Of a stretch of 34,033 nt of DNA, positions 21,932-23,954 are shown in pieces. The notes below the pieces were generated by a model. That model was given only the letters and a program-made list of their open reading frames with translations. It searched no databases and was not told the DNA's origin. The first letter of the stretch is position 1; each line of letters begins with the position of its first letter. Source of the DNA: Halocafeteria seosinensis (lineage: Eukaryota). The stretch lies in assembly GCA_001687465.1 (NCBI GenBank), contig LVLI01000149.1, forward strand, positions 1 through 34,033, written 5' to 3'. The translations under genes were made by a program, and so were the position numbers.

Positions 21932-22775
21932 TGCTGCAGAGGAAGGGTTTCCGAAGCGTGACAAAATTAATGTTTTCCAATTGAATATTGGCCTATTTTT
22001 CGCGTAGTTGAAATCAAATTCGCGCTTGTGTATCTATGCAAAAAACCAAAACATTCATTTTCCATAATTGTCTGCATCCGGGAACCCCATCAACTGATGC
22101 TCCGGAGTTCGAAGCTGACGGAAGTTAGCGCGGAAGCTCAGCTGACCCAGCTGGCAGAGGAGTGCAGACGTACTATTAGCTACACTACGGCAGAGTTGTA
22201 TACATATAGCGTGTAAAGCGCACAGCAGATTGGTCCGTTGTATGCGAGAGCAGCATCATACGTTCAACAAGAAGTCCATTTTCCTTTTCTTGCTATTTCT
22301 ATTCCGTTGGGAAAAGTTCAACTACTATATTGCAGCCATGACCCATGAAATGGCCACAGAGAAAATATTAAACTTTCAAGCGACTTTATTGTACATATTG
22401 AGGAAGTTATTCATTGCTTTCCGGCTCGTGAAGACCGCATACCTTATTGGCAGGCAATGCCTTATCTGCGGATTCGATATACATATCAGAGTACGATTGT
22501 CATTCACATCCCGTATGTCTATATACGCATACCACCTACCAATAAATTTTGGATGAGGAAGATTCAAGTTGTGCATCAGATCTGCGAATTCCTCTTGACG
22601 CAAAGTGAGCCGAGGATTCAAACCGCGTTCCTCAGAGACCGTCGTAAGCGTACGCCCCTGTGATTTATAGGAGGCGTGTATAAATCTAATACGTGTTAAA
22701 GAAAGATTAGGCATTCTATAGAAAAGTGCCTACCTTGTAGTCATGAGCTGGATAGAGCGCGCAGTGCTCTGGTAG
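21800..22775. repeat. Segmental direct repeat copy B (~976 bp; partner 15316-16275)
   Basis: Colinear with copy A; contains the functional 3' end of the dioxygenase gene and a dead YeeE exon 1. Confidence 0.93.
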
Positions 22776-23954
22776 AGACAGGATCTGAGTGTGCACCGAG
22801 CGGTACAAGGTCTTCGGGTTGCCCTGTTGGAAGTCTGTTCTTCCACATCCTCTATACAACAGTGCATCACCGGTAAACGCCATACTCTTGTCATTCATGA
22901 CAAAAGTGACACAGCCATCAGTATGCCCTGGTGTCGCTCGGACATTCAACTTGAAGCGCCTGCATACATAGCGGACTGTGGAAGTGGAGGGTTCATTACT
23001 TGTGGCTGTCCATACCGTACCCGAATGTAATATCGTCCCCTGGTTTTACATAGATATCGGCTTGTGCACCTGAAGTCGTAGCAATAAGCGATTTAACGCC
23101 CACCAGCTTTTTCTTCAGCAATCCAGTACCCGTGATGTGGTCAGCATGCATGTGGGTGTTCACTGCACAGTCACTCGAGCGATTCGATAGGCCAGCTTCA
23201 TTCATAACAGATCGATGCGAACTTAAAACTTACTTGCATACTTCAGTCGGATACCTAGTTCCTTTACAAGCTGGATATCCCGGTCAACAAGTGTATCCAC
23301 GGGGTCGATGAGCACTCCTTCCCGGGTATCAGCATCCGCCAGTAAGTATGTATAGGTGCAACTTTCGCGATCAAACAATTGCCGAAAGATAAGGCCTGAA
23401 TGCTGTCTAGGTACAACAGAGGCCGCAACTTCGCACACATTCACTTTCGATACCCATTCCTTGCACGCTTCTTTCTGCAGGAAGTGCGCGTTGTTCAGTT
23501 TGGCCCACGACATGATGGTTGGACCACTCCAGTTCTCGCGCATAGCTATCCCCAAAGCCGCGACGGCAGAGGCTCTGCATCCGGTCCTGCACTGAATCAC
23601 GGCAGGGGTAGGAAGCTCCTTGAGCGTATCCATCACTTCACGTCGGAGCTCGTCGCTGAGGATGGGAGACACCTGCATCGAGACGATAACACGGTTCAAT
23701 CAATCAATTTCAATGCCTCATACGCAACCCATTGCGCGTACCGGCACGGGAGTGCGCTTGTATACGGCTCCTTCCGTGTTGGCTAGTTCATGTGTGCGCT
23801 CTACTTTGTCTGTCCAGCCATGTTCGGCAGCTTCCTCATCGGAGAGAAGCTGCATCCAACCCTTCACATGGTACTCATGCAGCAGAGAGCAGGTCTCTTC
23901 ATCCGAGAGAGCTCCACAACAAATGTAGGGTCCTAGAAACGTCGCTTTATCCAT
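22407..23954 (-). CDS. ETHE1: DUF442-type sulfurtransferase domain fused to ETHE1-type persulfide dioxygenase (~398 aa, 6 exons)
   Basis: Introns 23673-23741, 23163-23233, 22960-23020, 22658-22733 and 22466-22539 give one frame. Dioxygenase motifs: [80 protein letters not shown]. The N-domain has [15 protein letters not shown] (C-x4-R loop as in DUF442). Confidence 0.92.

Follow-up and report, generated by a model that had tools for sequence, protein, structure and literature searches.

The locus described here raises the question of whether a eukaryote encodes a single enzyme in which a DUF442-type domain is joined to a persulfide dioxygenase of the ETHE1 type and, if so, whether this enzyme belongs to the bacterial Blh proteins or has the same architecture built from different parts. 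A preliminary description, made from the letters of the DNA, had proposed the second answer, with production of GSSH coupled to its oxidation and with possible redox control by an extra cysteine in the N-terminal loop. The window, by which we mean the whole stretch of DNA that was analysed (34,033 nucleotides from Halocafeteria seosinensis, contig LVLI01000149.1), is eukaryotic DNA with short introns. In the papers that we found, work on the DUF442-type domain is confined to bacteria, and here it is fused to ETHE1 in a eukaryote, beside sulfur transporter genes. No description of a eukaryotic DUF442-ETHE1 fusion was found in the titles and abstract starts of the literature searched, subscription journals and supplements lying outside that search; PMC13315243 mentions an algal ETHE1 without a fusion.

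Structure and splicing of the enzyme gene

The enzyme gene lies on the minus strand, its ATG at 23954 and its stop codon ending at 22407, both coordinates being exact, and it has no single open frame. Its six exons (23954-23742, 23672-23234, 23162-23021, 22959-22734, 22657-22540 and 22465-22407) are separated by five GT-AG introns of 61-76 nt each. All the motifs named for the gene were found, NPRLT among them and one of them across intron 4. Splicing was read from the joints of contigs from four runs (X1-X4), which belong to a single study and whose type is not on record. One contig of X2 (1539 nt) and one of X4 (1540 nt) each started before the ATG, ended beyond the stop codon and lacked all five introns; contigs of X3 skipped four of the five introns and those of X1 none. 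A transcriptome-derived protein, P0001, was the same as the 398-aa gene model save for residue 54. Exon 2 encodes both the CRTGCR loop of the N-domain and the first strands of the dioxygenase, which excludes gene calling as the source of the fusion. The fusion is one two-domain protein, encoded by a single spliced gene. The exon model and the X2 and X4 contigs thus bore out the coordinates, the motifs and the order, DUF442 before dioxygenase, that had been proposed, and placed both domains in a single spliced contig that begins upstream of the ATG.

The first 30 residues of the enzyme include one basic and five acidic residues, the first strand of the N-domain begins at residue 4 in the predicted model, and the sole upstream ATG opens a frame of two codons. 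A fold that starts at the beginning of the protein, an acidic start and the lack of an upstream extension make it likely that the enzyme is cytosolic, without a transit peptide. A basic leader is present in its relative P0033. The two-codon upstream frame (24048-24056 of the window, minus strand, ATG at 24050) lies in the 5' leader of the enzyme gene and is in frame with the main ATG.

Table 1. Coordinates of the features of the window.
Feature	Coordinates	Strand	Remarks
DUF442-like + type I persulfide dioxygenase gene	22407..23954	-	6 exons, 398 aa; gene model, splicing in contigs and P0001
DUF442-like domain, residues 1-~155	approx. 23418..23954	-	exon 1 and first part of exon 2; loop C99-R-T-G-C-R104
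ETHE1-type dioxygenase domain, residues ~163-394	approx. 22407..23400	-	H221, H277, D296, R305, Y339, R356, C389
SulP/SLC26 + STAS anion transporter gene	24356..27283	+	9 introns, 772 aa; spliced
Intact fused YeeE/YedE (Sulf_transp) + DUF6691 gene	14268..15447	-	3 predicted exons, 347 aa
Copy A of 1-kb duplicated segment	21800..22775	-	intact enzyme gene end, spacer and YeeE exon 1 remnant
Copy B of duplicated segment	15316..16275	-	remnant of last enzyme exons, spacer and start of intact YeeE gene
Insert between copies A and B	16276..21799		5.5 kb, partly multi-copy sequence

Identity of the two domains

The best solved relatives of the dioxygenase domain were human ETHE1 (4chl, 329 bits), Arabidopsis ETHE1 (2gcu, 302 bits) and BpPRF (5ve4, 289 bits), and the Pseudomonas type II enzyme 4ysk reached only 81 bits. 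The alignment with human ETHE1 ran over 230 residues without gaps. The segment THMHADH at residues 220-226 corresponds to the T-H-x-H-A-D-H motif of the MBL fold; the iron ligands H221, H277 and D296, the GSH-binding residues R305, Y339 and R356 and the equivalent of C247, C389, are all kept, so that the seven catalytic or substrate residues checked match without exception. We take H79, H135, D154 and R214 of human ETHE1 to be the counterparts of H221, H277, D296 and R356. R163, Y197 and C247 of the human enzyme are named in PMC6060420, the source also of the type I and type II labels of the solved dioxygenases.

A tree of 44 dioxygenase rows (6 fusion proteins, all 13 plasmid loci, 5 of 80 metagenome loci and 20 of 80 genome loci), built under LG+G4 with a bootstrap that had not fully settled, set the six rows of Blh/type II apart at 100/100. 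The row nearest to the dioxygenase domain was the unfused ETHE1 L014 (63% identity). Identity was 62% to an unfused ETHE1 and 29-31% to the Blh dioxygenases, and grouping with Blh was rejected (AU p 5.5e-7). By these sequence comparisons, the C-terminal domain belongs to the type I (ETHE1) persulfide dioxygenases, as had been proposed; that Blh carries the other subtype, type II, agreed with PMC5702731 as well as with the tree and the AU test.

The naming of the N-domain as DUF442 stood in part. PF04273 gave no match in the enzyme protein at E values up to 10, and there was no Pfam match there to DSPc or Y_phosphatase. The N-domain scanned alone matched the N-terminal part of the Blh model NF040641 (E 3e-4) and reached TIGR01244 with an E of 0.047 (13.7 bits versus a cut-off of 85.85). 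When 37 relatives of the N-domain were scanned, the PF04273 cut-off was passed by 14, the PTP-NADK cut-off by 8 and the DSPc cut-off by none, and in all 8 of those passing PTP-NADK the score of PF04273 was above that of every phosphatase family. The family profile compared with the PDB gave 2f46 and 3gxg as its top two (E about 1e-6), with PTPMT1 after them (0.007), and a six-domain profile made only of named bacterial DUF442-type domains scored 36.6 bits on the N-domain versus a maximum of 6.2 in 1000 shuffles. The AlphaFold model of the N-domain (pLDDT 93) has a PTP/DSP-like fold. A fold search returned the phosphatase 2dxp (Z 15.8, rmsd 2.8, 151 aligned) and the DUF442 protein 3gxg (Z 14.7, rmsd 3.0, 140 aligned), and since true phosphatases tie with or outrank DUF442 in both fold searches, the function cannot be told from the fold. 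The loop C99-R104 is of the form C(X)4R, that of DUF442, and not C(X)5R, that of classical phosphatases (PMC10716126). Look-alikes of the N-domain in the Atlas, at 0.86-0.89, were rich in PF04273 or unnamed and are a lead only. Its profile matches, its relatives, the C(X)4R loop and the predicted fold make the N-domain a divergent relative of DUF442 and not a curated member, PF04273 itself being the part of the label that failed; the C(X)4R loop and the absence of DSPc and Y_phosphatase matches also set it apart from true tyrosine or dual-specificity phosphatases.

The N-domain tree contained 56 rows, biased towards matches of the N-domain query, after P0004 (cadherin repeats, likely a false match) and P0024 (a fragment without the loop) had been left out. 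All 11 N-domains carried by type I dioxygenases fell within a 92/78 group, apart from five proteobacterial rows (100/99). Grouping of the N-domain with three Blh domains was rejected (AU p 8.2e-5), and its placement as sister to all five proteobacterial DUF442 rows was not rejected (AU p 0.304).

Spread of the fusion and its neighbouring genes

The same DUF442-like plus type I fusion was found in the brown algae Ascophyllum and Ectocarpus, in three further full-length proteins and two fragments, and in 3 of the best 80 metagenome loci, two of which lie on prasinophyte-like contigs beside unrelated eukaryotic housekeeping genes (Rpb8 or DHHC). The N-domain was present in 0 of the best 80 bacterial genome loci of type I dioxygenases, and P0001 alone as a query gave no match in bacterial genomes. 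Word-based searches with the N-domain recovered only P0001 (1/359 and 1/2201 candidates) and the alignment search, in which 7990 candidates were scored, all of 369 aa or more, found 3; being word-based or limited by length, these searches understate how widely the fusion occurs. Unfused or in tandem, the N-domain occurs in red algae, a cryptophyte and a raphidophyte. Two tandem DUF442-like domains make up P0003, P0005, P0008, P0011, P0016, P0025 and P0027, those named being from a raphidophyte and a cryptophyte.

On the tree the nine eukaryotic fusions tested take three changes, short of showing a single origin, and the AU test did not reject one (p 0.276). A small group of domains with a CRTGPR loop nests among the eukaryotic N-domains; genomic matches for this group numbered 0/5 genomes for A1 and 0/301 genomes for P0028, with none in plasmids. 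On a Nostoc plasmid (L001:5950-8051), arsR, a DUF442-type gene (loop CASTMR), a type I dioxygenase gene and tauE stand in a row, the DUF442-type gene lying 30 nt before the dioxygenase gene, unfused, and this dioxygenase falls in a separate cyanobacterial clade. With neither domain grouping with Blh in its own tree and AU test, the fusion, as judged from sequence, arose separately from Blh and is common to several microbial eukaryotes. The claim of an independent fusion is therefore retained as regards Blh, but by leaving out the other eukaryotes it was overstated: the fusion is not particular to the Halocafeteria seosinensis genome.

The preliminary description had passed over the SulP and YeeE-DUF6691 genes near the enzyme gene. 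The SulP gene stands head to head with the enzyme gene, with 401 nt between the two start codons, and the best solved relatives of its protein are eukaryotic SLC26/SULTR proteins. The YeeE-DUF6691 gene has no stops and keeps both of its Cys motifs, GNGCTSGHG and GLCPGP. Copies A and B of the duplicated segment are 82% identical, and the YeeE exon 1 remnant in copy A has ACG in place of the ATG of the intact copy. The simplest reading of this layout is that SulP, the enzyme and YeeE would once have been three consecutive genes, and that the duplication and the insert shifted YeeE away. A minus-strand joint of X4 (21520-21850) uses the donor of the exon 1 remnant, which indicates that the remnant downstream of the enzyme gene is still transcribed and spliced. 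Over positions 13506-15316, contigs of X2, X3 and X4 have a plus-strand GT-AG intron (14222-14293), and X2 runs unspliced through YeeE intron 2; together we read these as a spliced RNA running antisense to the YeeE-DUF6691 gene in its intact form; the longest ATG-started plus-strand frames of this RNA have 162 and 57 codons. No sense-spliced YeeE joints were listed in the X1-X4 contigs, which show presence, not absence.

The depth of X1 contigs was about 400-2200 in bins 16104-17435 versus about 120 at single-copy genes. The stretch 16276-17400, probably a mobile element, is multi-copy; it contains short tandem units near 16425-16563 and shows loose ends in each of the four runs. Pieces of a bZIP-like gene, below the Pfam cut-off, lie within the insert at 19670-20448, and two paralogue-like protein kinase genes stand tail to tail at 9213-10599 and 11390-12783.

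Among the best 80 type I dioxygenases of bacteria, 22 had a YeeE homologue within 4 kb, but just 3 had SulP nearby; given this low count and the eukaryotic solved relatives of the SulP protein, its adjacency to the enzyme gene may be due to chance. The operon of Chelatococcus has the order blh-arsR-yeeE-DUF6691-sulP, and in other bacterial loci blh-bigR is accompanied by tauE and by two genes for membrane proteins or YeeE. In L064 (17-2479), a 2.8-kb contig resembling a eukaryotic transcript, YeeE, DUF6691, the DUF442-like domain and the type I dioxygenase are joined in one frame of 821 codons.

Proposed sulfur chemistry and its alternatives

We consider it probable, from sequence and by analogy with bacterial systems, that the enzyme combines a DUF442-type sulfur carrier, Cys99, with ETHE1-type oxidation of GSSH to sulfite. 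The cytosol is the likely site, and the YeeE-DUF6691 and SulP proteins are likely partners. The fused YeeE-DUF6691 protein, equivalent to bacterial YedE1 plus YedE2, would carry polysulfide or elemental sulfur across the membrane. Cys99, aided by Arg104, would accept sulfur from polysulfide or thiosulfate and pass it to GSH or, in the other direction, would transfer sulfur from GSSH to sulfite, yielding thiosulfate. The H221/H277/D296 iron site would then convert GSSH to sulfite with O2, and SulP might transport the sulfur oxyanion product, which is the weakest of these steps. In bacteria, the two domains of Blh are coupled in vitro (PMC5823870), and the Cupriavidus DUF442 protein, with the loop CRTGTR, transfers sulfur from a Cys persulfide to GSH (PMC8533005, PMC9163753). 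By this analogy, production of GSSH is likely coupled to its oxidation in the fused protein. YedE1E2 takes up zero-valent sulfur and performs better when a dioxygenase is present (PMC10812762); uptake of this kind, feeding a dioxygenase, points to what the YeeE-DUF6691 protein may do. The position of the fusion beside two genes of sulfur-transporter families makes detoxification of reactive sulfur, as in bacterial Blh operons, the likely function.

It is unlikely, in our judgement, that next to an active dioxygenase the N-domain is no sulfur carrier and acts as a slow cysteine phosphatase or as a phosphate- or sulfate-binding regulator. Its PTP/DSP fold, the phosphatases sharing the top rank in both fold searches and the 8 of 37 relatives passing the PTP-NADK cut-off would suit such a role, as would NMA1982, a DUF442 protein with the loop CRTGTR that is a slow phosphatase (PMC10716126), but the loop is C(X)4R and PF04273 outscores the phosphatase families in those same 8 relatives. 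Moreover, no acid is aligned within two residues of the column of D71 of NMA1982, the kcat of the latter is 4.4e-5 per s (PMC10716126) versus about 5 per s for transfer to cyanide by DUF442 (PMC8533005), and the domain recurs in fusions with sulfur enzymes and with a sulfur transporter. The cysteine of the catalytic position is present in 56/56 N-domains and the loop arginine in 55/56; both residues are needed for sulfurtransferase activity in the Cupriavidus CRTGTR loop (PMC8533005), from which the CRTGCR loop differs by one residue. As for the extra cysteine, Cys103, it lies four residues from the catalytic Cys99 in the same loop and might form a disulfide or trisulfide with it, the redox control put forward in the preliminary description; we rate such a switch as slightly less probable still than the phosphatase role. 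The fifth position of the loop is occupied by 13 residue types, with Cys in only 2/56 domains, and the nearest relative, P0002, has Ile there (and His for the loop Arg). An extra cysteine so rare and absent from the nearest relative means that conservation lends redox control no support, and with such variability the 'usual CRSGTR' does not hold as a fixed motif.

That the gene is a bacterial Blh acquired horizontally, or that it arose recently when a bacterial DUF442 gene and its type I neighbour were fused, appears highly improbable. Blh has the same domain order, the neighbours resemble those of blh operons and the Nostoc plasmid provides a pair only 30 nt apart, but the dioxygenase has 62% identity with an unfused ETHE1 and 29-31% with those of Blh, both AU tests reject Blh, the Nostoc dioxygenase is in another clade, the N-domain is missing from the best 80 bacterial genome loci and the gene has five spliceosomal introns. 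A more serious possibility, though one that we hold somewhat short of probable, is that the fusion works while the cluster has ceased to function as a unit or has never done so, SulP being a chance neighbour and YeeE having been uncoupled by the duplication and the insert. The antisense intron over YeeE, the want of listed sense-spliced joints, the ACG of the YeeE start beside the enzyme, the scarcity of SulP at bacterial loci and the housekeeping neighbours of the prasinophyte-like fusions all point that way; against it are the stop-free frame of the intact YeeE gene with both Cys motifs kept, the four-part fusion of L064 and the fact that contigs show presence, not absence. This loss of the cluster would be compatible with the enzyme mechanism that we propose.

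Persulfide oxidation in eukaryotes is mainly described as the mitochondrial SQR-ETHE1-rhodanese route (PMC9163753). If the activities hold, polysulfide or thiosulfate would have a second route in algae and protists, probably in the cytosol, and the pairing of DUF442 with a dioxygenase would have evolved at least twice. The chemistry itself would be known, which limits the surprise; what is added here is a neighbourhood like that of a bacterial operon and a four-domain fusion in another eukaryote, and uncharacterised eukaryotic YeeE-DUF6691 proteins gain a testable partner. More tentatively, microbial eukaryotes of diverse kinds may possess a non-mitochondrial module for import and oxidation of sulfane sulfur, made of a YeeE-DUF6691 channel, a DUF442 carrier and an ETHE1 dioxygenase, possibly with SulP as the exit, held together by clustering here and by the four-domain fusion elsewhere, a eukaryotic counterpart of the blh operon from different parts.

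Comparison with Blh (Xylella, Agrobacterium and rhizobia; NF040641; PMC5823870) showed the same succession of a DUF442-type domain with a C(X)4R loop and a persulfide dioxygenase, and the families that neighbour blh, YeeE/DUF6691 and, in Chelatococcus, SulP, are also found near the enzyme gene. However, the dioxygenase of Blh is type II (PMC5702731) and that of the enzyme type I, the enzyme scored 110.5 bits with NF040641 versus a cut-off of 625, its gene has eukaryotic introns, and neither BigR nor TauE turned up in the frames of the window that were scanned. A type I dioxygenase, a DUF442-like domain and the rejected grouping with Blh make the enzyme Blh-like, separately assembled and no member of Blh. 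With human and Arabidopsis ETHE1 it has in common the iron ligands, the GSH-binding residues and the C247 equivalent; unlike them, and in keeping with its likely cytosolic location, it has a catalytic-looking N-domain of 155 residues where ETHE1 has a mitochondrial transit peptide. The YeeE-DUF6691 gene has both halves and both conserved Cys of the YedE1E2 (PmpAB-type) system that accompanies a dioxygenase in Proteobacteria (PMC10812762), whereas here a single gene of a eukaryote joins the two halves, with a predicted role in transport. BpPRF and similar proteins also combine a type I dioxygenase with a sulfurtransferase, but their partner is a C-terminal rhodanese-fold domain, whereas that of the enzyme is an N-terminal DUF442 domain of PTP fold; a C-terminal rhodanese-like tail was recognised by motif in 73 of the best 80 bacterial type I loci. 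At L034:31-1092, a rhodanese domain is N-terminal to a type I dioxygenase, a second N-terminal pairing of a sulfurtransferase with ETHE1.
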